DNA from: an uncultured Anaerolineales bacterium
GTDB taxonomy: Bacteria > Chloroflexota > Anaerolineae > CG2-30-64-16
DNA length: 64,000 bases
Reading direction: 5' to 3'
NCBI GenBank assembly: GCA_964551735.1
Contig: CAZKEF010000017.1
Coordinates: forward strand, 31,007-95,006
Part shown: piece after piece, positions 3,396 through 29,077 of the stretch
Layout of the letters: every line of letters starts with the position of its first letter
Numbering within the stretch: the stretch's first letter is position 1
Made by a program: the position numbers and the translations under genes
Notes under the pieces: model-generated
Seen by the model: the letters and a program-made list of their open reading frames with translations, nothing else
What the model was told of the DNA's origin: nothing
Database searches by the model: none

Positions 3396-6077
3396 ATGAC
3401 CCGCCGCACCCTTGACCTCAGCACCCTGCCCTGGCAGTTCGGCCCCGTCGAGCGCCAGCCGTTTACTGCGCAGCCGGCCGATGACCGCGCGGCCGCGGCC
3501 GAGTGGCTGCCTGCACGCGTGCCCGGCGACGTGCGCGCGGACCTGATCGCGGCCGGCCGCATCCCACCCCTCGACACGCCCGAAGGGATCGCCGCGGGCG
3601 CGTGGATTGATGACCGCGATTGGTGGTATCGCGTGACGCTGCCCGGCGGCCTTGCGCCGGATGAGGTTGCGATCCTGGAAGCGGACGGCATTGACTTCTA
3701 CAGCGCGATCTGGCTGGATGACCGCCTGCTCAGCACGCACGCGGGGATGTTCAGCCGGCAGACGGCCGTTTTGACACCCACCTTGAACGCTCCCGGCCCG
3801 CACGAGTTGGCGATCCGCATCTGGGGCGCGGGCGCGCTGCCGAGGGGGGCGAACCGGCCCTGGCGCCGGGCGATCCGTTGGCTGCTGGGTAAGGTCAGCC
3901 CGGCGGCCGAGTACTTCCCCGACCGGCTGCTGACCCCCAAAGCGCAGTTCAGCTTCGGGTGGGACTTCGCCCCGCAGGTGCTCAGCACGGGCATCTGGGA
4001 CGAGATCCGGTTGGTGGTGGCGCGGGGCGCGTATGTCGAGGATCTGTGGGTGGAGGCAGAGCCGGTAGTGGGAGAAGGTGAGCAGAGGGGCGGAGGAGCA
4101 GGGGCGCGGAGGAGCAGGGGGGCAGAGGAGAAAGGGAGCGGGGGAGAAGCAGAGACAGTCATGGCGCGCTTTCGCATGCACTTGCGTTTGCGACGCTGGC
4201 GGGCGCGGCCTTTGCGCGTTGATGTTTCAATCGTCCGCGCACACGACGCTTCATTGGCAACCGATGTCACACTCAGTTACTCATCCCACCGCGGCAACGT
4301 GCGCCCAGAACGACAGCTCTCTTATGTCATGCTGAACGGGTCCACAATTCAAGACACATTGCAGCGCACCACCAGTGAAGCATCTCCACAATGGGAGTTT
4401 CCTGCTGGCGTCACCGAAGAAGATCTCGCTTTAGAGTGCGACCTTCCCGCCGCGCGGCTCTGGTGGCCGTGGGATCAGGGCGAGCCGTGCTTGTACCGGG
4501 TGACCGTACGGCTGGTGGGCGATGACAGCGTGCTGGACGAGGTCAGCCGTGTGGTGGGCGTGCGTTCCGTGCGCCGGGAGCCGCTGCCGGAGGGCAACGG
4601 CTGGCGCTTCGTGATCAACGGCCGGCCCGTTTTCCTGCGCGGGGCCAATTGGGCGCCGGCCGACCTGCTGCCAGGGCGTGTGACCCAGGCTGACTACGAG
4701 CGGCTGCTGGCCCAGGCGCGCTCGGCCGGGATCAATTTCCTGCGCGTGTGGGGCGGCGGGGTGCGCGAAAAGCGCTCGTTCTGGGAGACGTGCGACCGGC
4801 TGGGGATCATGGCGTGGCAGGAGTTCCCGCTGGCCTGCACGTTCCTGGATCACTACCCACGGGATGGAACTGGTTCTGAGGATTGGACGCGGACGAGCGC
4901 GGATGAACGCGGACAGTTCAGATTTTCCGCGCTTGTCCGCGCTCGTCCGCGTCCACACCCAATCACATCCGGTGATGCGAGCAGCTACCTGGCGCTCCTG
5001 GCCTCGGAAGCGCGAGGGATGATCCGGGCGCTGCGCAACCATCCCAGCCTGATTGCCTGGTGCGGCGGCAACGAGATCAACCCCGGTCGCGAGCGCCTGC
5101 CCCTGGCCGCCATCCAGAACGTGCTGGCCGAGGAAGACCCCGACCGGCCGTGGCTGCCCGCGTCGCCGGCTGCGGGGGACGTACACCGCTGGGACGTGTG
5201 GCACGGCTTCGCGCCGTGGACAGCACTCCAACACGAAACCGCGGGGCTGGTGAGTGAGTTCGGCCTGCAGGCGTTGCCCGATCCGGCCACCGTGGCCGAG
5301 ATGTTCCCCGACGGCAACCCGACGGGCCTGACCGACCCGCGCTGGGCCGGCCGCAAGGCCCAGGTCGCCAAGCTGCTGCACTACGCCGGCCCCGAAGCTG
5401 CCAGCCCCCTCGACCGCGCCATCGCCGCCACCCAACGCGCGCAAGCGGCCGGGCTGCAGGCGGGCATCGAAGCGTGTCGCCTGCGCAGGACGACAGAAAA
5501 CGGGACGCGGATGAACGCGGACGGACGCGAAAGACTCCCAGAAGACAGTTTCCGCGCTTGTCCGCGCTCGTCCGCGTCCCATTCGCTGCCAGGCTGCGCG
5601 GGGGTGGTCTTCTGGCAGTTTAGCGAGCCGTGGCCTGCGGTGAGCTGGGCCGTGATTGACCGCGCGGGTCGGCCCAAAGCGGCCTACGCCATGCTCCAGC
5701 GCTGCTTCCAGCCCGTCCTGATCGCCGCGCGTTTCCCCTGGCGTCGCTACGCCGTAGGCGACACCTTCGCCGCCGAAATCTGGCTGGTGAACGATGGGCC
5801 GCTGGCCCGCGCAGGCTGCCGCGCTGAAGCCGCGCTGGATGGCCAGGCGGTTTGGGCAGAGGAAGGGATCGCGCTGCCCGCGGCCGGCAGCGTCCAGGCC
5901 GGCGAGTTGACGGTCAAGCTGGAGGCCGCGCCGCGCGCCCTGGCCCTGCGCCTGCTCTGCGCGGGTGAGGTGCTGGCGACCAACATCTACGACCTGGCGG
6001 TCCACCTGCCCGGCCGGCAGCCGTTGCGCCCGCGCATCCTCCAATGGATCGCTGAACTGCTTTTGATGTCCCGTTGA
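3396..6077 (+). CDS. glycoside hydrolase family 2 (beta-mannosidase-like) with three in-frame repeat insertions
   Basis: ATG at 3396 (residue 212 of track ORF; upstream part overlaps M50 gene on other strand). GH2 N-terminal sugar-binding region (LPWQFGPV...WLPARVPGDV...WWYRVT), TIM-barrel region (INFLRVWGGG...WQEFPLAC... CGGNEI). Reading frame stays open across a G-rich minisatellite (4072-4155) and two palindromic elements (4885-4954, 5501-5579). Confidence 0.65.
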   Translation: MTRRTLDLSTLPWQFGPVERQPFTAQPADDRAAAAEWLPARVPGDVRADLIAAGRIPPLDTPEGIAAGAWIDDRDWWYRVTLPGGLAPDEVAILEADGIDFYSAIWLDDRLLSTHAGMFSRQTAVLTPTLNAPGPHELAIRIWGAGALPRGANRPWRRAIRWLLGKVSPAAEYFPDRLLTPKAQFSFGWDFAPQVLSTGIWDEIRLVVARGAYVEDLWVEAEPVVGEGEQRGGGAGARRSRGAEEKGSGGEAETVMARFRMHLRLRRWRARPLRVDVSIVRAHDASLATDVTLSYSSHRGNVRPERQLSYVMLNGSTIQDTLQRTTSEASPQWEFPAGVTEEDLALECDLPAARLWWPWDQGEPCLYRVTVRLVGDDSVLDEVSRVVGVRSVRREPLPEGNGWRFVINGRPVFLRGANWAPADLLPGRVTQADYERLLAQARSAGINFLRVWGGGVREKRSFWETCDRLGIMAWQEFPLACTFLDHYPRDGTGSEDWTRTSADERGQFRFSALVRARPRPHPITSGDASSYLALLASEARGMIRALRNHPSLIAWCGGNEINPGRERLPLAAIQNVLAEEDPDRPWLPASPAAGDVHRWDVWHGFAPWTALQHETAGLVSEFGLQALPDPATVAEMFPDGNPTGLTDPRWAGRKAQVAKLLHYAGPEAASPLDRAIAATQRAQAAGLQAGIEACRLRRTTENGTRMNADGRERLPEDSFRACPRSSASHSLPGCAGVVFWQFSEPWPAVSWAVIDRAGRPKAAYAMLQRCFQPVLIAARFPWRRYAVGDTFAAEIWLVNDGPLARAGCRAEAALDGQAVWAEEGIALPAAGSVQAGELTVKLEAAPRALALRLLCAGEVLATNIYDLAVHLPGRQPLRPRILQWIAELLLMSR
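4072..4155. repeat. G-rich octamer minisatellite (GGAGCAGG/GGGGAGCA-type units), in-frame inside GH2 gene
   Basis: Tandem 8-nt units readable directly; encodes GEGEQRGGGAGARRSRGAEEKGSGGE; related arrays at 6241-6300, 6908-6960, 11778-11820. Confidence 0.6.
4885..4954. repeat. palindromic MITE/RPE-like element copy 1 (arms GGACGCGGACGAGCGCGGA / TCCGCGCTCGTCCGCGTCC), in-frame in GH2 gene
   Basis: Left arm ggacgcggacgagcgcggatgaacgcggac, right arm ttccgcgcttgtccgcgctcgtccgcgtcc are reverse complements; encodes WTRTSADERGQFRFSALVRARPRPH. Confidence 0.7.
5501..5579. repeat. palindromic MITE/RPE-like element copy 2, in-frame in GH2 gene
   Basis: gggacgcggatgaacgcggacggacgcg ... ttccgcgcttgtccgcgctcgtccgcgtccc; same arms as copy 1; encodes NGTRMNADGRERLPEDSFRACPRSSAS. 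Confidence 0.7.
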
Positions 6078-6112
6078 CATATCGCACGGTTTGGGCTATC
6101 CTACAACTTGTC

Positions 6113-7201
6113 ATGCGCATCGTCATCAACGGCTGGTTTCACGATCAACTTGCCACCGGCAGTGGCCAATACCTCGCCGCCCTGGCCGAGTGGCTGCCGC
6201 GCGTTGGGCAGGAGCATGAGTTTGTGGTGGTGCAACCGGGCGGGGGAGCAGAGGGGCGGAGGAGCAGGGGAGCAGGGGAGCAGGGGGGCAGGGGGGCACC
6301 TGAGTACGGCGAATCGGTGAATCAGCGAATCAGCGAGTCAGCGAGTCAGCGAATCGGCGAATCTCGAAAGACACCATCCGCCATTCGCCATTCGCTATTT
6401 GCTATTCGAACCCCCTTCGACCGCCTCGACCCGAATCTGGCCAAGCTCTGGTTCGAACAGGTCGGGTTCCCCCTGGCGTGCCGGCGGCTGCGGGCCGATG
6501 TGGCGTTCGTGCCCTATTGGGGCTCGCCGTGGTGGTCCCCCTGCCCGGTCATCGTTACGATCCATGACCTGATCCCGCTGCTGCTGCCGCAGTACCGGGG
6601 CGGGCCGCTGCAGCGCGCGTACACGGGGCTGGTGGGCCGGGCCGCGCGCCGCGCGGCCTCGGTGCTCACCGATTCCGAGGCCAGCAAGCGTGACATCATG
6701 GCGCACCTCCGCATCCCGGCCGAGCGCGTCCACGCGATCCACCTGGCGGCCGACCCGCGTTATCGCCCCGTGACCGATCCCGCGACGCTGGCAACCGTGG
6801 ACACAAAGTACAACTTATCGGACAGGCCGTTCGTATTGTATTTGGGCGGTTTCGACGCGCGGAAGAATGTGGTGCGGATGGTGGAGGCGTATGCGCGGCT
6901 GGTGGAACAGGAGCCAGGAGGCAGGAGGCAGGGGGCAGGGGGTGGGGGGCAGGGGACCGGGGTCAGGTTGGTGATCGCCGGGAAGTTGCCGGAGGTGGAC
7001 AGCGCGTTCGCGCCTGACCCGCGGCCGGTGGTGGCGCGGCTGGGGCTGGCGGAGCGGGTGCATTTCACCGGCTGGGTGGACGAGGCGGACAAGCCGGCCC
7101 TCTATTCGCTGGCGGCCGCGACGGTGTTCGTGAGTGAGTACGAGGGGTTCGGCCTGCCGGTGTTGGAGGCCATGGCGTGTGAATCTCCTCCCGAAATGTA
7201 G
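6113..7201 (+). CDS. GT4 family glycosyltransferase, apparently truncated shortly after the EX7E motif; carries in-frame minisatellite insertions
   Basis: ATG at 6113; GT4 N-domain then ...YEGFGLPVLEAMACESPPEM* stops about 12 aa after EAMA where GT4 enzymes normally continue about 90 aa; stop is immediately followed by MITE-like element E1; possible pseudogene/disrupted gene. Confidence 0.5.
   Translation: MRIVINGWFHDQLATGSGQYLAALAEWLPRVGQEHEFVVVQPGGGAEGRRSRGAGEQGGRGAPEYGESVNQRISESASQRIGESRKTPSAIRHSLFAIRTPFDRLDPNLAKLWFEQVGFPLACRRLRADVAFVPYWGSPWWSPCPVIVTIHDLIPLLLPQYRGGPLQRAYTGLVGRAARRAASVLTDSEASKRDIMAHLRIPAERVHAIHLAADPRYRPVTDPATLATVDTKYNLSDRPFVLYLGGFDARKNVVRMVEAYARLVEQEPGGRRQGAGGGGQGTGVRLVIAGKLPEVDSAFAPDPRPVVARLGLAERVHFTGWVDEADKPALYSLAAATVFVSEYEGFGLPVLEAMACESPPEM
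6241..6410. repeat. composite minisatellite: GGGGAGCA octamers x~6, then GAATCAGC octamers x~6, then CCATTCG heptamers x~5 (in-frame in GT4 gene)
   Basis: Direct reading of tandem units; same composite organisation (G-rich octamers followed by A/T-richer units) recurs at 11778-11878. Confidence 0.6.
6908..6960. repeat. G-rich tandem repeat (GGAGGCAG / GGGGGCAG units) in-frame in GT4 gene
   Basis: ggagccaggaggcaggaggcagggggcagggggtggggggcagggg; encodes EPGGRRQGAGGGGQG. Confidence 0.5.
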
Positions 7202-8849: not shown

Positions 8850-9050
8850 CCCTTATGTCACGGCTTTGCCGTGAGCGGGTTAACGACTCAAAGCTCATTA
8901 CGGCAAATGTCCAGCGAAGCATCTATCAGGCCGAAGCTTCTCTTGCACTGCGACGAGACCCTTCGCTGGAATCGCGCCGCAACGCACCTCACGGGACGGA
9001 CCCGCTCAGGGTGACAGAAGCAAGTTTCGCGGTATTGCGTTGTCTTTGCT
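8850..9050. repeat. MITE-like element E2, inverted relative to E1, in 5' UTR of ATPase operon
   Basis: cgtgagcgggttaacgactcaa ... ccagcgaag...cttcgctgg hairpin ... gacccgctcagggtgacagaagcaag aligns with reverse complement of E1. Confidence 0.4.
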
Positions 9051-9063
9051 AAGGAGCGTCATC

Positions 9064-10602
9064 ATGTTTGCCACCAAGACGCCGTGGCGCCAGCAGATGC
9101 CGGAGTTCCTCCAGTTCCTGGAGGCCGACCTCGGGCATCCCGTCCGCCTGCACGAAGAGGTGCTGGGCTACCACCTCTACTTCCTTGACCTGTCCGATTG
9201 GAAGCTGCGCTTCTCCGATCGCACCCCGGTGATCTGGGTGACAGCCAACGACCTGGCGGCCATGTCGGTCCGCGAGCTGGCCCAGAGCCTGGCCGACGTG
9301 GTGCGCGCCCGCAGCCTGGCCGAGCGCAACCCCATCGTCGCGCTGCCGGGGCCGGGCGTGGAGCTGCACACGCTGATCAGGACCGCGTACCTGCCGCTGC
9401 TGATCCTCGACCAGGACGCGCAGCGGGCGGTGCGCGAGTCGCGGCGCCCCTCCGGCGAGCTGCTGGATCGGCTGAGCGCCCAGCTCGACCTGTCGCTGCT
9501 GACCCCTTACGAGACCAGCAAGCCCGTCACCGGCTCGCGCTTCTTCGGCCGCGAGTTCGAGATCCGGCGCATCCTCCAGTCCAACGACACCAACTTCGCC
9601 ATCATGGGCATCCGGCGCATCGGCAAGACCTCGCTCATGCGGGAGATCGAGCGCCAGCTCCGCAACCAGGCGCAGGATGGCGGCGACGAGAACGCGCAGG
9701 AGCGCATCCTTTTCATGGATTGCAGCGCGCTGAGCTCGCCCGCCGGCTTCGTCCAAGAGATCGTGCGCAAGCTGCGGCCGCAAGAGCTCACCCGGTTGTC
9801 CAGCAAGCAGTATCCCATCTTCTTCCCCGACTTCCTGGAGCGCATGGCGCAGCGCTACGGCGGGCCGGTGGTGTTCTTCCTGGACGAGTTCGACAAGGTG
9901 CTCACCTGGCACTACGAAGATGACACCCTGCTGAACGCGCTGCGCGCGTCCAGCAACCAGGGGCACTCCCGCTACATCGTCGGCGGATTCCGCGAAGTGA
10001 TGCGCGCGTTCTCGGACCTGGAATCGCCGCTGTACAACTTCGCCCGGCCCATCCGCCTGAAGGAGTTCAGCCGCGAGCAGGCGGCCGGCCTGATCTTGGG
10101 CCCGCTGGAGCGGTTGGGGGTGCGCTTCGAACGGCGCAACGATGTGGTCAACCGCATCTTCGACGAGACCGCGGGCCAGCCCAACCTGGTGCAGTTCTAT
10201 TGCAGCATCCTGGTGGAGCGGCTGGATCGGGAGGGCGTGCGCGTTGTTGCGCCGGAGAGCCTGTTCGACGTCTACACCAACGACGACTTCCGCGCGTTCG
10301 TGCTCAGCACCTTCATGGACAACACCACCCATCTGGAAAAGGCCATCGTCTTCGCGGTCATGGCCGACATGGACGCGGAGATGCCGTTCAGCGTCAAGGC
10401 GATTGACGACGCGTTGGAGCGCCGTGGCGTCGAGGTGCCGCTTTCGGACCTGGACCTGGCGTGCCGCAACCTGGAGCTGGCCGGCACCCTCACCGCCCGC
10501 GGCCCGCTCTACCGCTTCGCCACCCCCGTCTTCCCGCGCATGTTGAACGAGAACTATGATGTGGGGTATTTGTTCAAGAAGGTGGTGCAGGAGGGGATTT
10601 GA
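9064..10602 (+). CDS. AAA+ ATPase of the Arch_ATPase (PF01637-like) type with C-terminal winged-helix-like region
   Basis: ATG at 9064 preceded by AAGGAG; FFGREFEIRRIL then Walker A GIRRIGKTS, Walker B VVFFLDEFD; TTGA stop/start overlap with next gene. Confidence 0.6.
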   Translation: MFATKTPWRQQMPEFLQFLEADLGHPVRLHEEVLGYHLYFLDLSDWKLRFSDRTPVIWVTANDLAAMSVRELAQSLADVVRARSLAERNPIVALPGPGVELHTLIRTAYLPLLILDQDAQRAVRESRRPSGELLDRLSAQLDLSLLTPYETSKPVTGSRFFGREFEIRRILQSNDTNFAIMGIRRIGKTSLMREIERQLRNQAQDGGDENAQERILFMDCSALSSPAGFVQEIVRKLRPQELTRLSSKQYPIFFPDFLERMAQRYGGPVVFFLDEFDKVLTWHYEDDTLLNALRASSNQGHSRYIVGGFREVMRAFSDLESPLYNFARPIRLKEFSREQAAGLILGPLERLGVRFERRNDVVNRIFDETAGQPNLVQFYCSILVERLDREGVRVVAPESLFDVYTNDDFRAFVLSTFMDNTTHLEKAIVFAVMADMDAEMPFSVKAIDDALERRGVEVPLSDLDLACRNLELAGTLTARGPLYRFATPVFPRMLNENYDVGYLFKKVVQEGI

Positions 10603-13600
10603 GCAATAGTGTCTCTTCCTGGCAGATTATTTCCTGCACAGACACCGCGTCCTTCAAACGCGTGCGCGTCCGCGACGACGCGCGCATCCAGGCCGTGGTG
10701 CGCCACCTGCAGGCGGATGAGTGCGTGGCGCTGTTGGGGCCGCCTCTCAGCGAGAAAAGCCACCTGCTGCACGACATCGCGGACGCGCTGCGGGCCACCG
10801 AGCGCTTCCTGCCGCTCTACCTGGACCTCTGGCGCGCCAACTCGGAGGACGAGGCGGTCTTCTTCACCAGCGTGGCCCGGCTGATCGCGGACGCGCTGGC
10901 CGCGGATCCGCTGCGCCGGGGTGCGGTGGCGCCGGTGGAAGGGGTGGCCGACCCGCGCGACTTTCAACGTTTTCTGACGGAACGCGCCGGCCGCAATGGC
11001 GCGTCCCCGCCGGCCGGCGGCCTGAACCTGGCGCTGCTGATTGACCACCTGCAGGCGCTGCCGCATGACCTGGTCCACAGCCTGCTGCTGGCGCTCCGTT
11101 CCACCTACATGGAGCGCGAGGCGGACGCGCCGCATCAGGTGGTGGCCGTGGTGGCCGGCGGCATGAACCTGGTCGGCCTCTCCACCGGGCCCACCTCCCC
11201 CTTCAACATCGCCAAACCGGTGGTGGCCGCGCCGCTCACCGAGGCCCAGAGCCGCGCGCTGGCCGAGGCCAGCCTGGCGGCCGCAGGCTGCCACGCCTCG
11301 GCCCAGGGGCTGGCGCGGCTGCTCGCCTGGGCTGGGGGCGACCGCTACCTGCTGCCCCGCCTGTGCGCGTGGAGCGCCGCGCTGGTGCAAGACTATCGCC
11401 GCCCGGTGGTCACCTGCCCCGTGGTCGAGCGCGCGGCCGAGCAGGTCTGGCGCGCAGCCGAGATCTTGCCCCCCGTCCGCGAAGCCATCCGCATGATCGA
11501 AGAAGATCCGGACAGCATGCTGGACATCCTGCACCTGCTGGATCACGGCGCGCTGCCCCGCGCCCGGGCCCGGCAGATGATCACCCGCACCGGCGCCGAC
11601 CGGCTCCAGCTCTCCGGCGCGGTCACGCTGGCCGAGGGGTGCTACCTGCTGATCAACCAGGCGTACCGGCTGGCGCTGGCCGAGCACTTCACCACCGAGC
11701 GCGTCGGCCACGTCCTGCGCATTGCCGGCCGCTGGGAGGAGGCGATCCAGTACCTGGCGCCGAGGTTGGCGGTCGAGCAGGGGAGCAGGGGAGAGGGGGA
11801 GCAGGGGAGAGGGGGAACGGGCGACGCAGCACGCAGCGTTCAATCCGAAATTCGCAATTCACAATCCGCAATCCATTCCGCCCGCCCCCAACTCCTCGAA
11901 GCCATCGTCCAGTCGCTGTATGCAACCGATTCGGTCGAGCAGGGATGCGAGACCCTGGCGAACGGCCTGCGGCTGGGTTTCGGGCTGGCGCAGGTCTCGA
12001 TCTACCTGGCGAACCCCGCACAGGGCCGCCTGGACCTGGCTTACCCGCCCGCGCGCGCCACCGGCCCCATCGGCCACCAATCTACCAATCCCCAATCTAC
12101 CAATCCCCAATCTACCGCCTCCGTTGACCTGAACGACCCGGCCTGCGTCGAGGCGCAGACGTACCATTACGGCAACTATGCGCTGCGCGGCACGGCCGAC
12201 GACGCGCGGCTGGTGGCGGCCCTGGCCTCGCAGAACCGGCCGCTGGGCGTGGTCACGGTGGAACACTACATCCAGGCCCGCGACCCGCACACCCTCCCCG
12301 ATGAGCTGCCCGACCTGCTGGGCTTCCTGCACCACGCGGCCGGCGCGCTGGAGAACGTGATCTTCCGGGCCGCGTACCGCGCCATCGGCCAGGCTGTGCT
12401 GGACGCCCGCGCGCTGCAGCCCACGGTCGAACGCGTGCTGAGCGCGGTCTGCGATGCCCTGGGCAGCCACTATGCCGTCCTCTACCTGGTGGACGACACG
12501 GGGCGGACGCTGGAGATGGCGGCCGGCGTGGGCCGGCCGGTCACGCCGGCGTGGCAGGCGGCGGCCCGGTTCTCGCTGGCGGGCCGGCACCCGGCCGCGG
12601 CCGCGCTGCGCGACCAGCGCCTGCAATCCGTGCGCGGCACTGCGGACGGGCCGGACGCGCCCCTGATGGAGCGATTGGGGCTGCACAAGCACACCCGCGT
12701 CTTCCTGCCGTTGGCCGCGGCCAGCGAGGCGCTGGGCACGCTGGAGCTCGGTTACGCGGCCGGCGCGCGGCTCCGCCTGACCGAAGCGGCCCGGCGCACC
12801 TACACCGCGTTCGCCAACCAGGTCGCCATCGGCGTCCACAACATGCAGCTCCTGCGCCGCACCGACGAAGCGCTGACCCGCAAGATGGCCGAGATCTCCG
12901 TGGGCCGCGAGATCCAGCTCAGCCTGCTGCCGAGGTCATGCCCGGCCGTGCCCGGCTGGGACTTCGCCGCGCTCTACCAGGCCGCGCGCATCGTCGGCGG
13001 CGACTTCTACGATTTTTGCGAATTACCCGGCCAGCCCCAGCGGCTGGGCATCGTGATCGCGGACGTCGCGGACAAGGGGGTGCCCGCGGCGCTGTTCATG
13101 GCCCTCAGCCGCACGGTGATCCGCACGGTGGCGCTGAGCGGCCGCGGCCCGGCCGCCGCGCTGATGCGGGCCAACGACGTGATCATGAACGACAGCCAGG
13201 CCGAGCTGTTCCTGAGCGCGATCTACGCGGTGCTGGAGCCCGAAACCGGCCGGCTGACCTACGCCAACGCGGGCCACAACCGGCCGCTGTGGGTTCACGC
13301 CGGGGACGGCACGGTGACCGAGCTGGATCAGCCCGGCATCGTGCTGGGCGCGTTCGAGCACATCGCGCTGACGGAAGGGCAGATCGATCTGGCGGCCGGG
13401 GACGTGGTGGTGTTCTACACCGACGGCATCAACGAGGCGATCAACGCGGACGGCGAGCAGTTCGGCGACGACCGGTTGCGCGACGCCGTGGCTGCGGCCG
13501 CAGCGGGGGGTACGGCGCAGGACGTGCTGACCGCCATCACTGCCGCGCTGGCCGCGTTCGTCGGGGAGACGGAGCAGGCGGATGATGTGACGGGGGTGGT

Positions 13601-13616
13601 GGTGAGGCGGGGGTAG
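10599..13616 (+). CDS. multidomain signalling phosphatase: degenerate P-loop NTPase-like N-domain + GAF + PP2C/SpoIIE serine phosphatase
   Basis: Probable TTG start overlapping upstream stop; N-domain has degenerate Walker A (GPPLSEKSH) and Walker B-like LALLIDH; C-terminus has SpoIIE/PP2C motifs (GIVIADVADKGVPAALFMA ... FYTDGINEA); carries in-frame repeat insertions at 11778-11878 and 12077-12116. Confidence 0.6.
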   Translation: MSNSVSSWQIISCTDTASFKRVRVRDDARIQAVVRHLQADECVALLGPPLSEKSHLLHDIADALRATERFLPLYLDLWRANSEDEAVFFTSVARLIADALAADPLRRGAVAPVEGVADPRDFQRFLTERAGRNGASPPAGGLNLALLIDHLQALPHDLVHSLLLALRSTYMEREADAPHQVVAVVAGGMNLVGLSTGPTSPFNIAKPVVAAPLTEAQSRALAEASLAAAGCHASAQGLARLLAWAGGDRYLLPRLCAWSAALVQDYRRPVVTCPVVERAAEQVWRAAEILPPVREAIRMIEEDPDSMLDILHLLDHGALPRARARQMITRTGADRLQLSGAVTLAEGCYLLINQAYRLALAEHFTTERVGHVLRIAGRWEEAIQYLAPRLAVEQGSRGEGEQGRGGTGDAARSVQSEIRNSQSAIHSARPQLLEAIVQSLYATDSVEQGCETLANGLRLGFGLAQVSIYLANPAQGRLDLAYPPARATGPIGHQSTNPQSTNPQSTASVDLNDPACVEAQTYHYGNYALRGTADDARLVAALASQNRPLGVVTVEHYIQARDPHTLPDELPDLLGFLHHAAGALENVIFRAAYRAIGQAVLDARALQPTVERVLSAVCDALGSHYAVLYLVDDTGRTLEMAAGVGRPVTPAWQAAARFSLAGRHPAAAALRDQRLQSVRGTADGPDAPLMERLGLHKHTRVFLPLAAASEALGTLELGYAAGARLRLTEAARRTYTAFANQVAIGVHNMQLLRRTDEALTRKMAEISVGREIQLSLLPRSCPAVPGWDFAALYQAARIVGGDFYDFCELPGQPQRLGIVIADVADKGVPAALFMALSRTVIRTVALSGRGPAAALMRANDVIMNDSQAELFLSAIYAVLEPETGRLTYANAGHNRPLWVHAGDGTVTELDQPGIVLGAFEHIALTEGQIDLAAGDVVVFYTDGINEAINADGEQFGDDRLRDAVAAAAAGGTAQDVLTAITAALAAFVGETEQADDVTGVVVRRG
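11778..11878. repeat. composite minisatellite (GGGGAGCA/GGGGAGAG octamers then CGCAATYC-type units) in-frame in PP2C gene
   Basis: gcaggggagcaggggagagggggagcaggggagaggggga...caatccgaaattcgcaattcacaatccgcaatccattcc; encodes QGSRGEGEQGRGGTGD...QSEIRNSQSAIHS. Confidence 0.55.
12077..12116. repeat. tandem repeat CCAATCTACCAATCCC x2.5, in-frame in PP2C gene
   Basis: caccaatctaccaatccccaatctaccaatccccaatctacc; encodes HQSTNPQSTNPQST. Confidence 0.55.
13565..13616. repeat. direct repeat copy 1 (3' end of PP2C gene)
   Basis: gggagacggagcaggcggatgatgtgacgggggtggtggtgaggcggggg; near-identical copy at 15207-15258. Confidence 0.55.
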
Positions 13617-13706
13617 GGCGGTCGCCGGATCTGCGGTTTGACAGCGCCGAAGATCTGGTTACAGTATAAGCAGCTTAGACTAAGCTACTTAGGCGAAAGA
13701 GATACG

Positions 13707-15158
13707 ATGCCTCATAAGTTTGTCGGCCGGGGGCGCGATGTTGCCGAGCTGAACGCGATTTTGGCTCGTCCAGGCGCGCAGCTCGTCCTGGTTTACGGCC
13801 GCCGGCGGGTGGGCAAAACCACGCTGCTCCTGGAATGGGCCGCGCAAACCGGCCGGCCCCTCATCTACTGGGTCGCGGCTCGCGATACGCCCGCGCTGCT
13901 CCGCCAGGGCTTCATGCGGAGCGTGTGGCAATGGGCGCACCCCGGCAGCCAGGCGGTCCCCCGCTTCGAGTCCTGGCGTGAGGTCTTCGCGGCAACAGCC
14001 GACCTGATCGGGGATCGGGCTGCGATCCTGATCCTGGACGAGTTCTCCTACGCCGCCGAATCCGACCCTGCCCTGCCCTCGCACTTACAGGCAGCCTGGG
14101 ATCATCTGTTCAAAGCGCGCAACCTCGCCATTGTGCTGGCCGGCTCGCACATCGGCTTGATGGTGGAGCAAATGAGCTACAACGCGCCGCTGTATGGCCG
14201 ATTCACCGCGCAGCTTCCCGTGGGGCCGCTGGCCTTCCCCGCCCTGGCTGACTTCTTGCCCCATTACACCGCGGCGGAACGCGTTGCCGCCTACGCCGTT
14301 GTCGGCGGCATCCCGGCCTACCTGGAGCAGTTCGACCCGGCCCAAAGCTTGAGCGCCAATCTGAAGGGCCTCTTCATGCGGCGCACCGGCCTCTTCCGCA
14401 GCGAGCCGTTCATCCTGATCGGCGATGTGATCCGGCGCGAAACCCAAACCTACGAAGCGATCCTCAAGGCCATCGCCGCGGGCCAGCGCACCCCCAGCGA
14501 CATCGGCGCCATGGTGGATCGCACCAGCGGGTATCTCAGCCCCTACCTGAAGAACCTGGAGGCGCTGCACCTGGTGGAACGCCGCGTCCCGGCCACGGTG
14601 CCGCGCGACCAGCGCCAAGCCAGCCGCAACAGCCGGTACCACCTGGCGGATCCCTATTTGCGCTTCTATTTCCGCTTCATCGCGCCCAACCTCGACCTGG
14701 TGGAGCAAGAGCTATCCGACATGTTGTGGGAGCGCATCGGCGAGCAATTCCGCGCGTTCGTCGGCGCCACCGCGTTCGAAGGCCTGTGCCGTGAGTGGGT
14801 TCGTGTCCAGGCGCGAGCCCGGCGACTGCCCCTGACCCCGGAAGCGATCGGCAGCCACTGGTCGGCCAATGCGCAAGTGGATGTGGTCGCGATCAACTGG
14901 CACGACCGGGCGATCCTGCTGGGCGAGTGCAAGTGGGGGGAGCAACCGGCCGACCGGGGCGTGATCCGGGAATTGGTGGCCAAGGCGCCGAAGGTCGTGC
15001 CGGCCGCGGGCGAGGGCGAGACCGCATGGCAGGTACACTACGCCTTCTTTGCGCGCGCCGGCTTCACCGATGCCGCCCGCGCTGAGGCGGTGGGGCTGGG
15101 CGCGCGGTTGGTGGATCTGGAGAGGTTGGATGGGGATTTGCGGCGCAGAGTAGGGTGA
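13707..15158 (+). CDS. AAA+ ATPase (Arch_ATPase N-domain) with C-terminal DUF234
   Basis: ATG at 13707 after GAAAGAG RBS; Walker A VYGRRRVGKTT, Walker B ILILDEFS; C-terminal region resembles DUF234 of archaeal-type ATPases. Confidence 0.6.
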   Translation: MPHKFVGRGRDVAELNAILARPGAQLVLVYGRRRVGKTTLLLEWAAQTGRPLIYWVAARDTPALLRQGFMRSVWQWAHPGSQAVPRFESWREVFAATADLIGDRAAILILDEFSYAAESDPALPSHLQAAWDHLFKARNLAIVLAGSHIGLMVEQMSYNAPLYGRFTAQLPVGPLAFPALADFLPHYTAAERVAAYAVVGGIPAYLEQFDPAQSLSANLKGLFMRRTGLFRSEPFILIGDVIRRETQTYEAILKAIAAGQRTPSDIGAMVDRTSGYLSPYLKNLEALHLVERRVPATVPRDQRQASRNSRYHLADPYLRFYFRFIAPNLDLVEQELSDMLWERIGEQFRAFVGATAFEGLCREWVRVQARARRLPLTPEAIGSHWSANAQVDVVAINWHDRAILLGECKWGEQPADRGVIRELVAKAPKVVPAAGEGETAWQVHYAFFARAGFTDAARAEAVGLGARLVDLERLDGDLRRRVG

Positions 15159-15258: not shown

Positions 15259-15308
15259 GGGAAATCAGTGATCCTGACCTGACTCTCAACACCTCAACCG
15301 TCGGCCAG

Positions 15309-16064
15309 TCAAGGATAGCATTGAGCGATAAAAGCTTTGTCTGTTTCGGACAGTTCGCTGTTCCATGCTATCTCTGTCCCGTCAAGCGTCCAGCGCTTGG
15401 GTATTGGATACACCATAATCGACTTCGGGTCAAACTGAGTGAATTGAGTCTGAGTAAACATATACCTGGCAAGCACGTTCTCACGAATAGTATACTCATC
15501 CCAGTTGTTCGGTGGGCCAGACAGGTCTTTTATCACAGCTTCTTCATTCCATTTCATACCAGAAGCAGGACTCTGGTGTTCATGAATTAAGCCCAGAGCA
15601 TGACCGAACTCATGCAGCACCACCCGCGAAAACTGTGCATCCACAGAGTCAGGTTTCAACCCACTAAGGTTCATTGTAGGTTGACTAAGCGGGACATCAA
15701 CAACCTCCATACCAACATAGGATGACGAAGGCTGATCGGACCTAAACGAGATGCGGATGTCCGCATTTGGGTAATAATCGTAACGGAATTCGAATCTGAG
15801 GTTCGCGTACTGAAGCCACTGCCTGGCGCAGACTTCTACCTGCTTTCGGACGCTCATGCTGCCGCCAATGAAGGTCACTCTTAGAAGTCGCCCAGGCTTC
15901 CAAAACCAGTTTTCGAGCCCGGCAGCCTGCAGAGGTGAAAGCATATTTCGCGGGTTTTCCGAAATCGCAAGTTGGCGTGCAAGGACATAGTCCGCATGAT
16001 GCACTGAGCGGTCAATACAAATGGACATTGATAACCTAGACATAGCACTTCTCACTTCCCCCAT
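15309..16064 (-). CDS. astacin-like metzincin zinc metalloprotease, no signal peptide
   Basis: HEFGHALGLIHEH (HExxHxxGxxHE astacin-type zinc site) and downstream Met-turn SIMVYP (astacin SxMHY); N-terminus hydrophilic, so predicted cytoplasmic. Confidence 0.55.
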   Translation of the reverse strand: MGEVRSAMSRLSMSICIDRSVHHADYVLARQLAISENPRNMLSPLQAAGLENWFWKPGRLLRVTFIGGSMSVRKQVEVCARQWLQYANLRFEFRYDYYPNADIRISFRSDQPSSSYVGMEVVDVPLSQPTMNLSGLKPDSVDAQFSRVVLHEFGHALGLIHEHQSPASGMKWNEEAVIKDLSGPPNNWDEYTIRENVLARYMFTQTQFTQFDPKSIMVYPIPKRWTLDGTEIAWNSELSETDKAFIAQCYP

Positions 16065-16121
16065 CCCATCGAATGTCGTGCCGAGAATGAGCTTCTTCTT
16101 CTGTGTATCTGGGTCTTCACA

Positions 16122-17297
16122 TCAACGATAGGGTAAGTCATCCCTGATTCGAGTTAGGATTGCTGTGATTGGAATACCTTCATTGCCCCTGATATAGGGT
16201 AGCAATGAAGGGCTAGGTGCTTCCGTTTCGCCATGATGCAGCGCAATAATGTCGCCATCCTTATCAAATACAGGTGCGCCGGAAGCGCCGTGCTCAGTAT
16301 GAGTCAAGTACTGCATCCGTCTCCTAGTAGTATCTATGATCAAGTTGTGGAATAAGGCGATCTTCTGGGGCTTGTATCCAGGGTACTGGACAACGAAAGC
16401 CACGCCATACAGTTTGGGAGTCTTCGGGACGAGTCGCACATATCCTATCTCCGGCATGTCTCCAGGTCGTCCCTCGATTCTTAGTAATGAAAAGTCAAGG
16501 TTCTCAGTATCACTTGAACGTACCACATGCTCAACCCAATACTCATACCCCTGCTCGAGAACTCCCTTGCTGCTATATCTGAACCTAAAGCGAACGCGAT
16601 ATGCACGCTGTTTAGCGTTCTTTGGCACAACATGGTTGCAGGTCAAGACTAGATCGGGAGCAACGGCGAATCCTGTCCCAACTGACCTTCCGTCGGGTTC
16701 TTCGATGCGGCAAGTGGCACTGCTGATTCGGCCTACCGACTCTGAAAAGGCAACTTCTAGGAGGTTGACCGTCTGTTGCCATTGACTAAGCATCGTATCT
16801 GGGGCCAATGAGCCATACCACGGGTAAGGAGCACGAGGTTGGTGCCAACCCAGATCAAAGAGCCTATCAGTGGGAGAGATCACTGGAAGAGGGAGTTTGA
16901 CTAGATTGGCAACCTTCTCTCTGAACCGAATCTCGCTGAAATCCTCTTTGAATATCACATCGCCATGATAATCTATCCTGACAGCAGTAGTTAGTTCGTA
17001 ATCTTCGCGCCGCGGGCAAAGACGTGCTCCGTCGGTCACAACCACAACCTTGATACCCCGGTTCACCGCTTTATCAATCATTTCGATGCAGTCTTGACGA
17101 ATCCGCGTATGATTATCTTCCCGATCGTTCAATTGTACATTAAGTACGGCAAGGTCAAGGTGCTCGGAGCGAATCAGACTAATGGCCTGAGATCGCTCGC
17201 TTTCACACAGGATTTCATGACCTAACGGCTCAAGAGCGTCATGAAGCTTATCCATGCGCCATTGTTGGTCATTATCAATGATTAGAATACGCGCCAT
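16122..17297 (-). CDS. response-regulator receiver domain fused to trypsin-like (S1-family) serine protease
   Basis: REC features: IIDND acidic pocket, D in HLDLAVLNV, VVVVTDG, K in IFKEDF. Protease triad: LTCNHVV (His), NLDFSLLRI (Asp), GASGAPVF (GDSGGP-like Ser). Confidence 0.6.
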   Translation of the reverse strand: MARILIIDNDQQWRMDKLHDALEPLGHEILCESERSQAISLIRSEHLDLAVLNVQLNDREDNHTRIRQDCIEMIDKAVNRGIKVVVVTDGARLCPRREDYELTTAVRIDYHGDVIFKEDFSEIRFREKVANLVKLPLPVISPTDRLFDLGWHQPRAPYPWYGSLAPDTMLSQWQQTVNLLEVAFSESVGRISSATCRIEEPDGRSVGTGFAVAPDLVLTCNHVVPKNAKQRAYRVRFRFRYSSKGVLEQGYEYWVEHVVRSSDTENLDFSLLRIEGRPGDMPEIGYVRLVPKTPKLYGVAFVVQYPGYKPQKIALFHNLIIDTTRRRMQYLTHTEHGASGAPVFDKDGDIIALHHGETEAPSPSLLPYIRGNEGIPITAILTRIRDDLPYR

Positions 17298-17330
17298 ATC
17301 AATCTCCGTCAGTTGTTGTCACAAAAAACG

Positions 17331-18152
17331 CTATGATACGACGCGGAGGCCGCTGAGTGCATTCCGTATTGCATCCCGATATCTAACTGGGGAGAACTTA
17401 TGCTTATCCACATAGTAGCACGCCCCATAGTTTCGATATGACTCGCGTATATGCACTGGCGTACCATGTCCGGAGCTAACAATAACCTGAGTAAACCTTC
17501 CCCGTGCATGGTCCAATTCTCTAAGTAGACTCATCAAATACAACCCTTCATAATTCGACTCATCATTTTCAGCTAATCTCAGATCACAAATAACCAGATC
17601 GTAACTTTGCTCCGTAAGGCTCTTCTCCGCTGCAGTGCGACTCGTAGCCGTGTCTATCCTAGCCATTGTTGGTAACGAATCCACCAAGGTCTTAAGCCAG
17701 GTTGGATCATCATCAATTACCAAGACAGTGCCGCTAGAAGTCACTAGAAGTTCACGTCTGTTTGTAACAAGGCGCACAGCGGCGAAAGACTGATCGACCA
17801 GAGCTACGAGTTGATCCTCGTCGTATGGTTTGCCTACACAGTCAAAGGCGCCTTGCTGAAAGACAGATCCCAACTCCTCCAGAGGAGGGTCAACGGCATA
17901 CAGTACAACAGCAGGTATACAGCGATCGGATAACGCGCTCAAGAACCAACGATCCTGAGTTAATGTGTCAAAGTCAACCAGTGTTATAAGATGCTGCAGT
18001 GCGTCGCCTAGGGCATTGAGAATTGCTCGGGCGCTATCTGGCGACGAGGCTGTGGCAACTTGATAGTCTGCCTCGCGCAGTGTAGTGCTGGCGAAATCCA
18101 GCCAATCCTTCTCAGAGTCAACGATCAGCACTTGACTGGCTTCCGTGTTCAT
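17331..18152 (-). CDS. tandem receiver-domain (REC-REC) response regulator without output domain
   Basis: Two REC units: VLIVDSEKD...LVDFD...K and VLVIDDDP...DLVICDLRL...VIVSSG...K. Confidence 0.6.
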   Translation of the reverse strand: MNTEASQVLIVDSEKDWLDFASTTLREADYQVATASSPDSARAILNALGDALQHLITLVDFDTLTQDRWFLSALSDRCIPAVVLYAVDPPLEELGSVFQQGAFDCVGKPYDEDQLVALVDQSFAAVRLVTNRRELLVTSSGTVLVIDDDPTWLKTLVDSLPTMARIDTATSRTAAEKSLTEQSYDLVICDLRLAENDESNYEGLYLMSLLRELDHARGRFTQVIVSSGHGTPVHIRESYRNYGACYYVDKHKFSPVRYRDAIRNALSGLRVVS

Positions 18153-18154
18153 AT

Positions 18155-26220: not shown

Positions 26221-28648
26221 CCTTCTCCTGTTTCGCGCAAGGCAGCTTCACCACGAAGGCAGTCCCGATGAACATCAGGCTTGCTGCCAGGCTCAGGCTC
26301 CCGCCCGTCATCTCGACCAGGTTCCGGCTAATATAAAGACCCAGACCGGCGCCATCGGGGCGTGTGGTGTATCCCATTTCGAATACCCGTTCGTGAAGTT
26401 GTCCGTGAATTCCGGGGCCACTGTCCATCACGGCAATTTCCAGGGGACGTCCTGTGAAACCCTCGATACGTCGTGTTTGAACTATGACCTGCCGAACACG
26501 CGCCAAATCAGCCTGTTCGCCCTGTTCTGCATGGAGTTGTCCAAAGAACTGCATCTTCAATTCGATCTGTTGGATGGAGTTAAGTATCAAATTGGTCAGT
26601 ATTTGCTCAAGTTGCGGCCGGATGGCCAATGCCTTTGGGAGTCCAGCGGAAAGATCTGTGGCAAACATGATTCCTGCAGCGCGCGCCCTGTGTTCCAATT
26701 GACGCAGCACGCCGGTAACCGCTTCATTGACATTCACCAGATCGAGCTCGTGTCGAGCCAGGCGTGTATAACCCTTCACCAAATCCGAAAGACTTCCTTG
26801 CTGTTGTGCAAGCCTATGAACTGAGTCTGCGATCTTTTGTCCCCGTGCCTGATCTGGAGCGGCCTGTGCCTTGTCGCAATATCCCTGTAAGAGCTTTGTC
26901 TCCCAGTTGAGGCCATCGAGCTTGTGGTTCAATTCATGCACCAGGTTCGCCAAGAGTTCACCTCGAGAACAGTGTTCCTGATAACCGCGCATGTGATCGA
27001 GGAGTATCGCGTTCTCAATTGTAGTTGCAAGAAGCCCTGCCCCCAATCGTGCCCGATCGACCTGTTCACGCCCCTCCCTGCTTTTTGTGGAGAAGCCCAG
27101 GATGCGTTCGTCAAAGAGAAAGAGGGCGTGTCGAGTCAGCCGTCCAGGAATCAGGAGCGGCAACCCAAAACAGGAGCGATAACGCAAGTCTGGAAACAGA
27201 TTGCGAAGGCGTGCTTCCTCATAACGAAGCGCCTCAGTGAACCGAAATTCCTGTTCTTCCTCGATCACATTACGTGCCGGACTGTGATATAGGGTGCCCA
27301 CTGCCCTTTCCGCTATCCCCGGAGGTACTGGCGGATCCGCGGCCAGAATCGAAACGATCTTGCTGGCTGTATCCAACTCCAACACCATCGCCTGGCTGAT
27401 CTGGATGGTCTCCCGTAATGTCATCAACGCGTCCAACAAACGCTCATGCAGCGACCGTTTCGCCAGGGATTTAAGGCCAACTCGTTCCAAGAACCCAGAT
27501 TGACTGCCACCAGGCGACGAGCGCGATGCTATGACTCTGGTCCAATAACCCGTACATAACCTGTGCACCCAATCAACGATTTCTTCGTCGGTCTTATCTA
27601 TCAAAGGATCCGTGGGCTTTTCGATCTCCGCAACAACAGGCAACTCAGACCCGTTGATGATGACCGGTGCTTCTGCTCTGTTGAGTTCCGGGTCGTGCGA
27701 TGGCGGGGCGAAATCCAAATCCAGCTTTTCGACGCGCATCCTGCTGACAAACAGCACTGGTAGACCAGGCCTGGCAGTACGCAGCCGAGTGGCCACAGCC
27801 GGTCCAAGCTCACCATCCAAATACACATCAACGATAGCTAATCCGTAGGAATGGCCCCCTCTAACTAGCTCTAGGGCCTGATCCCCGGAACTCAAACCAT
27901 CGACCTCAACGCCGAACTCTCTCTTCAGGGCCTCACAGATACGTTCTCGATCCTGCACATCATCATCCACCACCAAGAAACGATGAGGCCGTGGAATAGG
28001 AGGCAAAAACCGATACGTTTCGGTTAGCCCTTCTTGGTCAGATGAACCGTCCTGATGAGGCAAAGAGGTTGGCTGGGGTTCGGGAGTACGGAGCAAATCT
28101 GCCAGCGCGTGACTCTGCTCCTGAACGCTGGCGAGGCGCCTAAGCTCACCCCACAGGCTGAGGTCAATTTGCCTCAGCGTGGGACTCATCTTCGTTACGA
28201 GGCCGCGCACCCGGTCCCCGATCCAGAGCAGATCCTCCACCCCCAAATCGCGCAAGATGGGGAGATCATCTCGCCAAACTACCGCATCAATCCCCGGTTC
28301 CAACTGGACAAAAGCGCGATCATGTTGGACGTTTACCACCTCGCCTTCAACGCTTTGACCAATTCGATAGCGATACCTCACACCAACATCGTCCCAAGGG
28401 TCAGCGGCCTGGCGCAGGCTCAGAAACACCAACCCACGCTGCGGATCATCTTCCAAGACAATTGCATCGAATTCCGAGCCTACCTGGGGCATTGTTGGCA
28501 TAACGCCGATGCGCCGATCCCACGACAATTCTTTCCGCCGGATGAAACCGGCGCGATTGCTCTTGAGAATCTTGACCCAGACACCCGTGTCTCGGATTTG
28601 GGCAACAGCAACTCGCACGCGAGTTGATGGTAACATAAATGACGCCAT
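26198..28648 (-). CDS. hybrid sensor histidine kinase: two N-terminal S1-like RNA-binding domains + REC + GAF + HisKA + HATPase_c
   Basis: S1-like OB folds: VRVAVAQIRDTGVWVKILKSNRAGFIRRKELSW... and IGQSVEGEVVNVQHDRAFVQLEPGIDAVVWRDDL...IGDRVRGLVTKM; REC (FLVVDDDV...LAIVDVYL); H-box HELNHKL; ATP lid VMDSGPGI...GLGLYISRNLVEMTGGSL. Confidence 0.6.
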   Translation of the reverse strand: MASFMLPSTRVRVAVAQIRDTGVWVKILKSNRAGFIRRKELSWDRRIGVMPTMPQVGSEFDAIVLEDDPQRGLVFLSLRQAADPWDDVGVRYRYRIGQSVEGEVVNVQHDRAFVQLEPGIDAVVWRDDLPILRDLGVEDLLWIGDRVRGLVTKMSPTLRQIDLSLWGELRRLASVQEQSHALADLLRTPEPQPTSLPHQDGSSDQEGLTETYRFLPPIPRPHRFLVVDDDVQDRERICEALKREFGVEVDGLSSGDQALELVRGGHSYGLAIVDVYLDGELGPAVATRLRTARPGLPVLFVSRMRVEKLDLDFAPPSHDPELNRAEAPVIINGSELPVVAEIEKPTDPLIDKTDEEIVDWVHRLCTGYWTRVIASRSSPGGSQSGFLERVGLKSLAKRSLHERLLDALMTLRETIQISQAMVLELDTASKIVSILAADPPVPPGIAERAVGTLYHSPARNVIEEEQEFRFTEALRYEEARLRNLFPDLRYRSCFGLPLLIPGRLTRHALFLFDERILGFSTKSREGREQVDRARLGAGLLATTIENAILLDHMRGYQEHCSRGELLANLVHELNHKLDGLNWETKLLQGYCDKAQAAPDQARGQKIADSVHRLAQQQGSLSDLVKGYTRLARHELDLVNVNEAVTGVLRQLEHRARAAGIMFATDLSAGLPKALAIRPQLEQILTNLILNSIQQIELKMQFFGQLHAEQGEQADLARVRQVIVQTRRIEGFTGRPLEIAVMDSGPGIHGQLHERVFEMGYTTRPDGAGLGLYISRNLVEMTGGSLSLAASLMFIGTAFVVKLPCAKQEKDEHHEQD

Positions 28649-29062: not shown

Positions 29063-29077
29063 CATGTGGCTTGCCAG

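Follow-up and report, generated by a model that had tools for sequence, protein, structure and literature searches.

Effector-associated adaptor domains (EADs) are proposed to bring in effectors through homotypic interactions in conflict systems that depend on a nucleoside triphosphatase (NTPase) (Kaur, Burroughs, Iyer, Aravind; PMC7159879, PMC8195603, PMC10907252), an example being the combination of an nSTAND1-EAD8-FGE protein with an EAD8-trypsin protein (PMC10907252). Receivers in EAD systems are described as independent of histidine kinases, and no kinases are found among the effectors (PMC7159879, PMC8195603). Here we describe a gene for a related protease, which is fused to a receiver-like domain and encoded next to a histidine kinase and a canonical receiver. 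The gene (16122-17297) lies in a 64,000-nucleotide stretch of an uncultured Anaerolineales bacterium (assembly GCA_964551735.1, contig CAZKEF010000017.1, positions 31,007 to 95,006), referred to below as the window. REC* is our name for the distinct clade of Asn-bearing pseudo-receivers to which the receiver-like domain belongs, and the gene product is called the REC*-protease.

The locus resembles the EAD conflict systems in having a homologous protease with a homologous extension before it, in coupling a regulatory module to a cytoplasmic protease effector, and in its REC* domain, which is elsewhere fused to EAD8, EAD1 and EAD11. It differs in that Pfam detected no EAD on the REC*-protease, and in that the module has no STAND, MoxR-vWA or GAP1 NTPase core. 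No NTPase core with a matching EAD was found in the genomic island that carries the gene, and an nSTAND1-like ATPase (9040-10602) is located in the host flank, which is rich in guanine plus cytosine (GC), and has no EAD. Instead, the trigger accompanying REC* consists of a GAF histidine kinase and an Asp receiver, with a kinase linked in 9 of 10 loci. Protease effectors in PADLOC-DB 2.0 (RT-Protease class XI, an LmuA protease variant and Avs1b) gave significant partial matches to the protease domain (E 5e-10 to 6e-5), whereas here the gene lacks a partner of the reverse transcriptase, Lamassu or Avs kind. No full gene set of that database was matched, the only match beyond the protease being a weak partial one of the receiver in the neighboring REC-REC protein (PDC-M60C, E=3.8e-6), and the other eight island proteins had no match.

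Receiver folds without a phosphorylatable Asp are known as aspartate-less receivers (ALRs) (PMC4395418, PMC12632262), a definition that also describes REC*. Examples given in these sources include RitR (Asn53), FrzS, WhiI and CmrT, and Asn accounts for 16% of ALR substitutions (PMC4395418). Heterodimers of a receiver and a pseudo-receiver, as for WhiI/BldM and CmrT, are an accepted model, and competition for kinase binding is also discussed as a mechanism (PMC12632262). A protease output is mentioned neither in that review nor in the main text of PMC4395418. REC* is similar to the ALRs in its receiver fold lacking the phosphorylatable Asp and in the substitution by Asn, to CmrRST in that a pseudo-receiver is operon-linked to a normal two-component pair, and to WhiI/BldM in the heterodimer proposed below. 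In contrast to ALRs, REC* has as its output a protease or a death-fold-like adaptor instead of a DNA-binding domain, and unlike many of them its clade conserves the other pocket residues (DD, T, K).

Proteolysis by the AAA+ protease ClpXP is controlled by RssB and CpdR, receiver adaptors that can be phosphorylated and that bring substrates to this separate enzyme. In these systems, as would be the case here, proteolysis depends on a domain of the receiver family, but the protease of the present protein is in one chain with the receiver-like domain, and that domain cannot be phosphorylated at the canonical site. A protease output has gone essentially undescribed among response regulators, and no description of a module of kinase, receiver, pseudo-receiver and protease was found in the literature searched. 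The REC*-protease combines two known kinds of protein, aspartate-less receivers and EAD-type protease effectors, in a module context that appears undescribed in that literature.

The REC* domain and the fused protease

The REC*-protease consists of the REC* pseudo-receiver, a pre-protease extension and a trypsin-like protease (Table 1). Its open reading frame (ORF) has a GGAG sequence 9 nt 5′ of the ATG, and a protein in NCBI-derived data (P0001) is 100% identical to it. A preliminary description of this DNA had presented the protein as a phospho-accepting receiver fused to a serine protease with an intact triad, and all motifs that it quoted were found in the ORF.

Single-sequence comparisons matched the N-terminal domain weakly. 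Pfam Response_reg (PF00072) covered amino acids (aa) 4-59 with 15.2 bits (E=0.025), below its cut-off of 30.2, all NCBIfam response-regulator models gave E values of 0.015 or worse over the same ~60 residues, and DivK from the PDB matched that N-terminal part similarly weakly. The profile of the REC* family matched solved receivers at E values down to 7.5e-10, and the domain has a CheY-like (βα)5 fold. In these alignments the family consensus 'dlvvlNvkL' was placed on 'DLVILDIEM' of T. maritima RR468 and on 'DLIVLDVML' of PhoP, and the LDLAVLN53V of the window protein on DLVILD53IEM, so that Asn53 occupies the D53 column of the phospho-acceptor. The pocket residues are D8, N9, N53, T88 and K117. 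D8 and N9 stand in the place of the acidic pair after β1, which is DD in the wider clade, and T88 and K117 correspond to the Thr/Ser at the end of β4 and the Lys at the end of β5.

When 1.84 billion representative sequences were searched exhaustively with HMMER for matches to the N-terminal profile, 34 proteins were returned at E<=1e-3. Strong matches share LIIDDDxxWR ... FDLVVLN[IV]xL ... IVVTS ... DFxxKEDF, and 23 of 24 strong members have Asn in the acceptor column according to the hmmalign table, while the weaker matches are ordinary receivers with Asp in that column. The acidic pair is DD in the relatives, DN in the window protein and its orthologue P0002, and DA in P0045; the Lys was kept in all strong members, and the β4 position is mostly Thr, otherwise Ser or Ala. 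The claimed hallmarks of a phospho-accepting domain were only partly present, as the receiver fold, the Thr of VVVTDG (T88) and the Lys of IFKEDF (K117) had been correctly identified, whereas the acceptor Asp and the second acidic residue are replaced by Asn53 and N9. The Asp in HLDLAVLNV, taken as the acceptor in that description, is D48, a common Asp at the start of β3 and outside the pocket; it was rejected as an acceptor together with other nearby Asp residues. With Asn53 in the acceptor position, as is conserved throughout nearly all of the family, the N-terminal domain is an aspartate-less pseudo-receiver and not a phospho-accepting receiver.

The same observations bear on the idea that the protease is gated directly by phosphorylation, with a change of the α4-β5-α5 face switching it on. 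The receiver fold, the retained T88 and K117 and the adjacent kinase agree with this idea, and deamidation could, in principle, turn an Asn at an acceptor site back into Asp (PMC4395418). Deamidation of Asn53, a one-way licensing step, is the only way in which direct gating could be rescued. The Asn at the acceptor column, both in this protein and in nearly the whole clade, is opposed to it because Asn cannot form an acyl phosphate; N9 alters the metal-binding pair; and the neighboring gene always supplies an Asp receiver of the same clade, which means that a phospho-acceptor is already present. Asn before Val, Ile or Leu is among the slowest contexts for deamidation, and since Asn53 precedes Val (Ile or Leu in the clade), such licensing is not expected to occur readily. 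We consider direct gating highly improbable.

The protease half was recognized by Pfam Trypsin_2 (PF13365) over aa 207-353 with 70.6 bits (E=3e-19), above the curated threshold, so that of the two profile matches anticipated in the preliminary description, one to Trypsin_2 and one to Response_reg, the former was obtained and the latter fell short of its cut-off. When the window protein was aligned with 25 database homologues (26 sequences in all), D268 and S339 were present in every sequence and H222 in at least 90% of them. A GxSGxP motif is present, and the half has the chymotrypsin fold, modelled by AlphaFold with a predicted local distance difference test (pLDDT) score of ~90. The intact His/Asp/Ser triad reported earlier was thus confirmed, and so was the architecture, a receiver-fold domain fused directly to a chymotrypsin-fold protease; judged by its triad, the protease half should be a genuine and catalytically competent trypsin-like serine protease. 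No signal peptide was found in the protein, whose N-terminus is the receiver-like domain, and for these reasons it was taken to be cytoplasmic.

The best homologues of the protease outside its immediate family are EAD1- and EAD8-Trypsin_2 proteins, and the homology to EAD8-trypsin and EAD1-trypsin proteins includes the conserved N-terminal extension. This extension follows a linker of low model confidence (AlphaFold 2 pLDDT <50 for aa 135-160; helices at 166-194), and its motif was also found in the EAD8-trypsin proteins of two other loci (L044 and L045). EAD8 is located just upstream of the extension in relatives and is absent from the window protein. In a BLASTP alignment with P0039, a REC*-EAD8-trypsin protein, the REC* parts are 34% identical, and aa 133-385 align with aa 297-551 of P0039 at 34% identity (E=3e-49), skipping its ~160-aa EAD8 segment. 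Because the alignment covers REC* and the protease and leaves out EAD8, the window protein would be the EAD8-less, directly fused and most compact form of REC*-EAD8-trypsin, and its protease is assigned on homology to the clade of EAD-linked trypsin effectors of conflict systems.

Direct fusions are rare, as had been noted: among 5.8 billion protein clusters, only two further members of the fusion family (P0002 and P0003) were found, and a profile search of genome contigs with the three-member family alignment gave no match. P0002 is 67% identical to the window protein over the full length and keeps N9 and N53, while P0003 (locus L003) is 55% identical and its contig shows 'LAILNIEL', with the Asn kept. 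In L003 (positions 1-300), a stop codon is located 12 codons before 'ILAILN' in the REC* frame of P0003, and the region from β1 to α2 is missing; the truncated REC* reflects either decay of this copy or an error in the assembly. Between the window gene and the gene of P0002, the proportion of nonsynonymous differences (pN) was 0.115 for REC*, 0.19 for the protease and 0.35 for the linker, and that of synonymous differences (pS) was saturated (0.74-0.88). These values point to purifying selection on both REC* and the protease, with REC* as the most constrained part, and gene decay after loss of EAD8 was rejected on this basis.

Purifying selection also bears on whether REC* might merely be a structural domain that oligomerizes or stabilizes a constitutive protease, encoded in an island that is a recent and possibly non-functional passenger. 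The location of the gene in a low-GC island, the one relative with a truncated REC*, and the independence of many characterized ALRs from their pocket residues (PMC4395418) are in line with such a role. The strong selection on REC* and the intact triad argue against it, as does the order of kinase, receiver and REC* genes, which is kept at 30-37% protein identity, and harm to the cell would be expected from a cytoplasmic protease that is not regulated. Taken together, these make a purely structural role very unlikely.

Table 1. Coordinates of the REC*-protease gene, its parts and the neighboring genes in the window
Feature	Coordinates	Strand	Description and basis
REC*-protease ORF	16122..17297	-	391 aa; ATG start; stop codon 16122-16124; ORF listing, key codons checked
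REC* pseudo-receiver domain, aa 1-134	16896..17297	-	(βα)5 fold
Asn53 codon	17139..17141	-	Column of canonical phospho-acceptor Asp; profile alignment to solved receivers; codon checked
Linker and conserved pre-protease extension, aa 135-194	16716..16895	-	Motif LGW..P.(F/Y).W..L..W, then two helices
Trypsin-like (PA clan, S1-type) serine protease domain, aa 195-391	16125..16715	-	
Triad codon H222	16632-16634	-	
Triad codon D268	16494-16496	-	
Triad codon S339	16281-16283	-	
REC-REC protein	17331..18152	-	273 aa; Pfam Response_reg in two stretches
Cytoplasmic 5xGAF histidine kinase	18155..21382	-	1075 aa; Pfam GAF x5, HATPase_c; AHRIG H-box
Alanyl-tRNA synthetase (AlaRS) catalytic-domain paralogue	21445-22863	-	472 aa; Pfam tRNA-synt_2c E=1.2e-57
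REC-6xGAF protein	22894-26220	-	Pfam
S1-REC-HATPase hybrid kinase	26198-28648	-	Head of cluster; Pfam; counterpart in L038 at 2-2269
Metzincin-like zinc protease (HEFGHALGLIHEH)	15309..16064	-	Pfam Peptidase_M10, Astacin; NCBIfam 'AbsR1' E=1e-32

Gene order of kinase, receiver and REC*

The gene context given in the preliminary description, a REC-REC gene and two kinase genes ahead of the REC*-protease gene, was found as described, and the genes for the 5xGAF kinase, the REC-REC protein and the REC*-protease are separated by operon-like gaps of 2-33 nt. Here a kinase with a His-box and an ATPase domain adjoins an Asp receiver, the arrangement of a two-component system. The REC-REC protein keeps the acceptor Asp in both of its receivers (D60 and D190). 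Its second receiver, REC2 (aa ~140-270), scored 53 bits over the full length of the hidden Markov model (HMM) of REC*, while other receivers of the window scored at most 18 bits. This difference places REC2 and REC* in sister clades, told apart by the residue in the acceptor position.

Evidence for the module comes from ten loci and was derived from sequence (Table 2). A canonical Asp receiver, orthologous to the REC-REC protein of the window, is encoded directly upstream of REC* in all 10 independent loci, and it is preceded by a kinase, or by a large ORF in the kinase position, in 9 of them; in the tenth (L035-37) the contig ends. Kinase domains were verified in 8 of the 9, by Pfam in the window, L032, L038, L042, L044 and the JGI contig, and by alignment of the kinase core in L001 and L041. 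A conserved AHRIG H-box is common to the six kinase cores that were aligned (window, L001, L032, L038, L041 and L042), and the kinases of these loci are orthologous. The order of kinase, receiver and REC* was kept across proteins as divergent as 30-37% identity, and no DNA-binding output was found on the linked receivers of REC* loci. The proposed tie between the fused protein and a two-component system was thus borne out in the window, in the locus of the orthologue and in the relatives examined.

Table 2. Gene order in the ten independent REC* loci (sizes in amino acids in brackets)
Locus	Source	Kinase position	Receiver	REC* gene	Next gene
1	Window	5xGAF kinase (1075)	REC-REC (273)	REC*-trypsin	Metzincin
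2	L001, L002	Kinase	REC-REC (276)	REC*-trypsin	Metzincin
3	L032-34	GAF kinase (1917)	REC-REC (271)	REC*-adaptor (240)	Caspase (510)
4	L035-37		REC-REC (contig end)	REC* (128)	CHAT
5	L038	GAF kinase (1090)	REC-REC (276)	REC*	
6	L041	Large ORF, C-terminus aligning with kinase core	REC-REC (281)	REC*-EAD8-trypsin	
7	L042, L043	GAF kinase (1485)	REC (142)	REC*-EAD8-trypsin	
8	JGI contig	GAF kinase (907)	REC-REC (273)	REC*-EAD8-trypsin	
9	L044	GAF kinase (1457)	REC (142)	REC*-EAD8 (361)	EAD8-trypsin (384)
10	L045-47	Large ORF (1120+), presumed kinase	REC (137)	REC*-EAD8 (254)	EAD8-trypsin (380)

This linkage is relevant to a reading in which REC* is a kinase-independent switch for a ligand, such as a nucleotide or a metal, and the two-component genes do no more than control expression or work alongside it. 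The strong conservation of D, D, T/S and K around Asn53 suggests ligand binding, and a role of this kind has been predicted for receivers in EAD systems (Kaur et al. 2021, PMC8195603). Those published receivers are kinase-independent, whereas REC* is accompanied by a receiver in every locus and by a kinase in nearly all, with tight operon-like spacing, and the lack of a DNA-binding output on the linked receivers means that transcriptional control is not evident. A kinase-independent switch is unlikely in our judgement.

REC* is coupled to its effector in several ways. Two chains occur as REC*-EAD8 with EAD8-trypsin or as a REC*-adaptor with an adaptor-caspase, and in other relatives the coupling is within a single chain (REC*-EAD8-trypsin) or REC* adjoins a CHAT gene. 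In L032 (9180-11533), the last ~100 aa of the REC* protein are homologous to the first ~95 aa of the adjoining Peptidase_C14 caspase, the matching sequences including RGKLCDKIDLHSTAQDIRRFQQA in the REC* protein and RGQLCDILDDHSTDLDIRKLQQA in the caspase. Pfam EAD models matched neither stretch, and the shared region may be an undescribed adaptor domain. Other REC* architectures were REC*-EAD8, REC*-EAD1, REC*-EAD11, REC*-EAD8-Trypsin_2, REC*-Metallophos and REC* followed by a 450-aa domain that Pfam leaves unassigned. The C-terminal ~450 aa of the last type, common to P0029, P0034 and P0041, contain the motifs YRDHVxHS and FHDIGY and resemble an HD-type phosphohydrolase, and the REC* gene of L038 (P0030) resembles a truncated gene for such a protein.

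Some of the loci that were screened did not belong to this set. The 28 loci L004-L031, from a contig scan with the REC* alignment, were ordinary receivers caught by a generic N-terminal motif, and of two distant loci from a metagenome scan with REC-REC (L039 and L040), the receivers checked in L039 carry Asp and are not REC*. A homologue search with the REC* profile, restricted by its word index, gave only three true members. Beside the module, an SBP_bac_5 gene follows in L032, L041, L044 and L045, and it is in turn followed by Opp-type permease genes in L032 and L044; the contigs of L041 and L045 end before the permease position could be read. A DDAH/ADI gene precedes the module in L032 and L044. 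The linkage to SBP_bac_5, permease and DDAH genes may be plain synteny or may reflect a functional link to peptides.

Proposed control of the protease

Phosphorylation-gated proteolysis in the direct sense, as put forward in the preliminary description, was not supported. Asn53 makes such gating unworkable at the canonical site, so that the kinase could gate the protease only by an indirect route. We infer that the two-component system very probably controls the protease through the pair of receiver and pseudo-receiver, with the REC*-protease as the last step of a signalling chain from the soluble multi-GAF kinase to the Asp receiver, to the Asn-bearing REC* and then to the protease. The kinase would phosphorylate the neighboring Asp receiver and not REC*. 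The phosphorylated receiver, which by its sequence is a relative of REC*, or possibly the kinase itself, would bind REC* and change its oligomeric state, and the protease could then be activated by the proximity of protease domains or by release of autoinhibition. By analogy with related effectors, the resulting intracellular proteolysis might lead to growth arrest, death or another drastic change of state. We give this model as a whole an even chance of being right, and our confidence in any single step is lower.

Several observations weigh against the model. AlphaFold 2 predicted the N-terminal domain with moderate confidence (pLDDT 63-82, and <50 for aa 90-112). The truncated REC* of L003 indicates that the domain can be lost. 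The part of the model that concerns death or conflict rests on the kinds of effector (trypsin, caspase, CHAT and EADs), and no other island gene fits a PADLOC model. Finally, a heterodimer does not explain why the acidic pair, Thr and Lys have been kept almost without exception around Asn53. This conserved pocket hints that REC* may still bind a metal, a phosphoryl mimic, a nucleotide or phospho-His, and it is the reason why a ligand switch, a decoy that traps phospho-His and deamidation licensing stay alive as alternatives.

In the decoy alternative, REC* would dock on the phosphorylated kinase dimer as a substrate trap, using its intact pocket but being unable to take over the phosphoryl group. 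The active kinase would then serve as the platform on which the protease dimerizes and is activated, and the Asp receiver would set the threshold by competing as a sink for phosphate. This fits a pocket conserved except for its nucleophile, and it fits the constant company of kinase, Asp receiver and Asn receiver; kinase dimers would also provide proximity-induced activation, and binding competitors of this sort have been discussed for pseudo-receivers (PMC12632262). We give the decoy a small probability, similar to that of the ligand switch.

The model of indirect control through the receiver pair can be extended to the relatives. Tentatively, and with more doubt than belief, we suggest that a soluble multi-GAF kinase with an Asp/Asn receiver pair could be an unrecognized trigger module of bacterial apoptosis-like systems, one that stands in for their STAND or MoxR NTPase core and connects two-component signalling with proteases of the death type, using EAD adaptors for trypsin and probably for caspase, adjacency for CHAT and direct fusion in the present case, and that a six-gene version of it might receive an RNA- or tRNA-related input. 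If true, this would link two-component signalling to EAD, caspase, CHAT and trypsin effectors that have so far been tied to NTPase cores. If the receiver pair works as inferred, it would also offer a tractable example of pseudo-receiver switching, a process that was called a mystery for bacterial pseudo-receivers in a 2025 review (PMC12632262). The fused 391-aa protein, as a single chain without an adaptor, is the simplest member and the best candidate for biochemistry.

The six-gene cluster and its low-GC island

In the window, the REC*-protease belongs to a cluster of six genes, which encode the S1-REC-HATPase kinase, the REC-6xGAF protein, the AlaRS catalytic-domain paralogue, the 5xGAF kinase, the REC-REC protein and the REC*-protease. 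All six recur in the metagenome locus L038 in the same order, with the same domains and similar sizes. The AlaRS paralogue is 51% identical to its L038 counterpart (5237-6694), and the REC-REC protein 37%. Against NCBIfam alaS the AlaRS paralogue scored 194 bits, with a cut-off of 457, its match ending at ~420-436 of full-length AlaRS profiles, and with 472 aa it is too short to hold the editing and C-Ala domains. Together with the S1-domain kinase, it hints at an RNA- or tRNA-related input. The metzincin gene lies directly downstream of the REC*-protease gene, and a 58% identical gene is located downstream of the orthologue (L002 1481-1777); the metzincin is possibly a second effector or a substrate of the REC*-protease.

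All candidate genes are on the minus strand of a low-GC block of 17 kb (~15300-32100) with a GC content of 0.45-0.57, flanked by sequence with 0.65-0.72, while the contigs of the relatives range from 0.46 to 0.65. The block encodes kinases, receivers, GAF proteins, the AlaRS paralogue, the metzincin and Band_7 proteins. At its borders there were no tRNA genes and no flanking repeats beyond chance 14-mers, and no integrase was noticed among the window ORFs scanned. Horizontal acquisition of the island is the simplest reading of its composition. The right GC step (~32100) falls within an ORF for a Band_7 protein (31290-32711), of which the first ~200 codons are GC-rich; the start of this ORF is probably over-extended, or else the gene is chimeric.

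In the left host flank, the gene of the nSTAND1-like ATPase is on the plus strand and overlaps by 4 nt with that of a 1005-aa GAF-SpoIIE (PP2C) protein (10599-13616), which is followed by a gene for an ATPase_2/DUF234 protein (13638-15158). These genes (9040-15158) look like a separate NTPase-based system adjoining the island. Immediately to the right of the island, a gene on the minus strand (33072-37301) encodes a protein of 1409 aa that contains six lamin-tail domains (LTD, E=2.6e-107), and next to it, in the high-GC flank, is a gene for an RpoD-like sigma factor (37470-38762).

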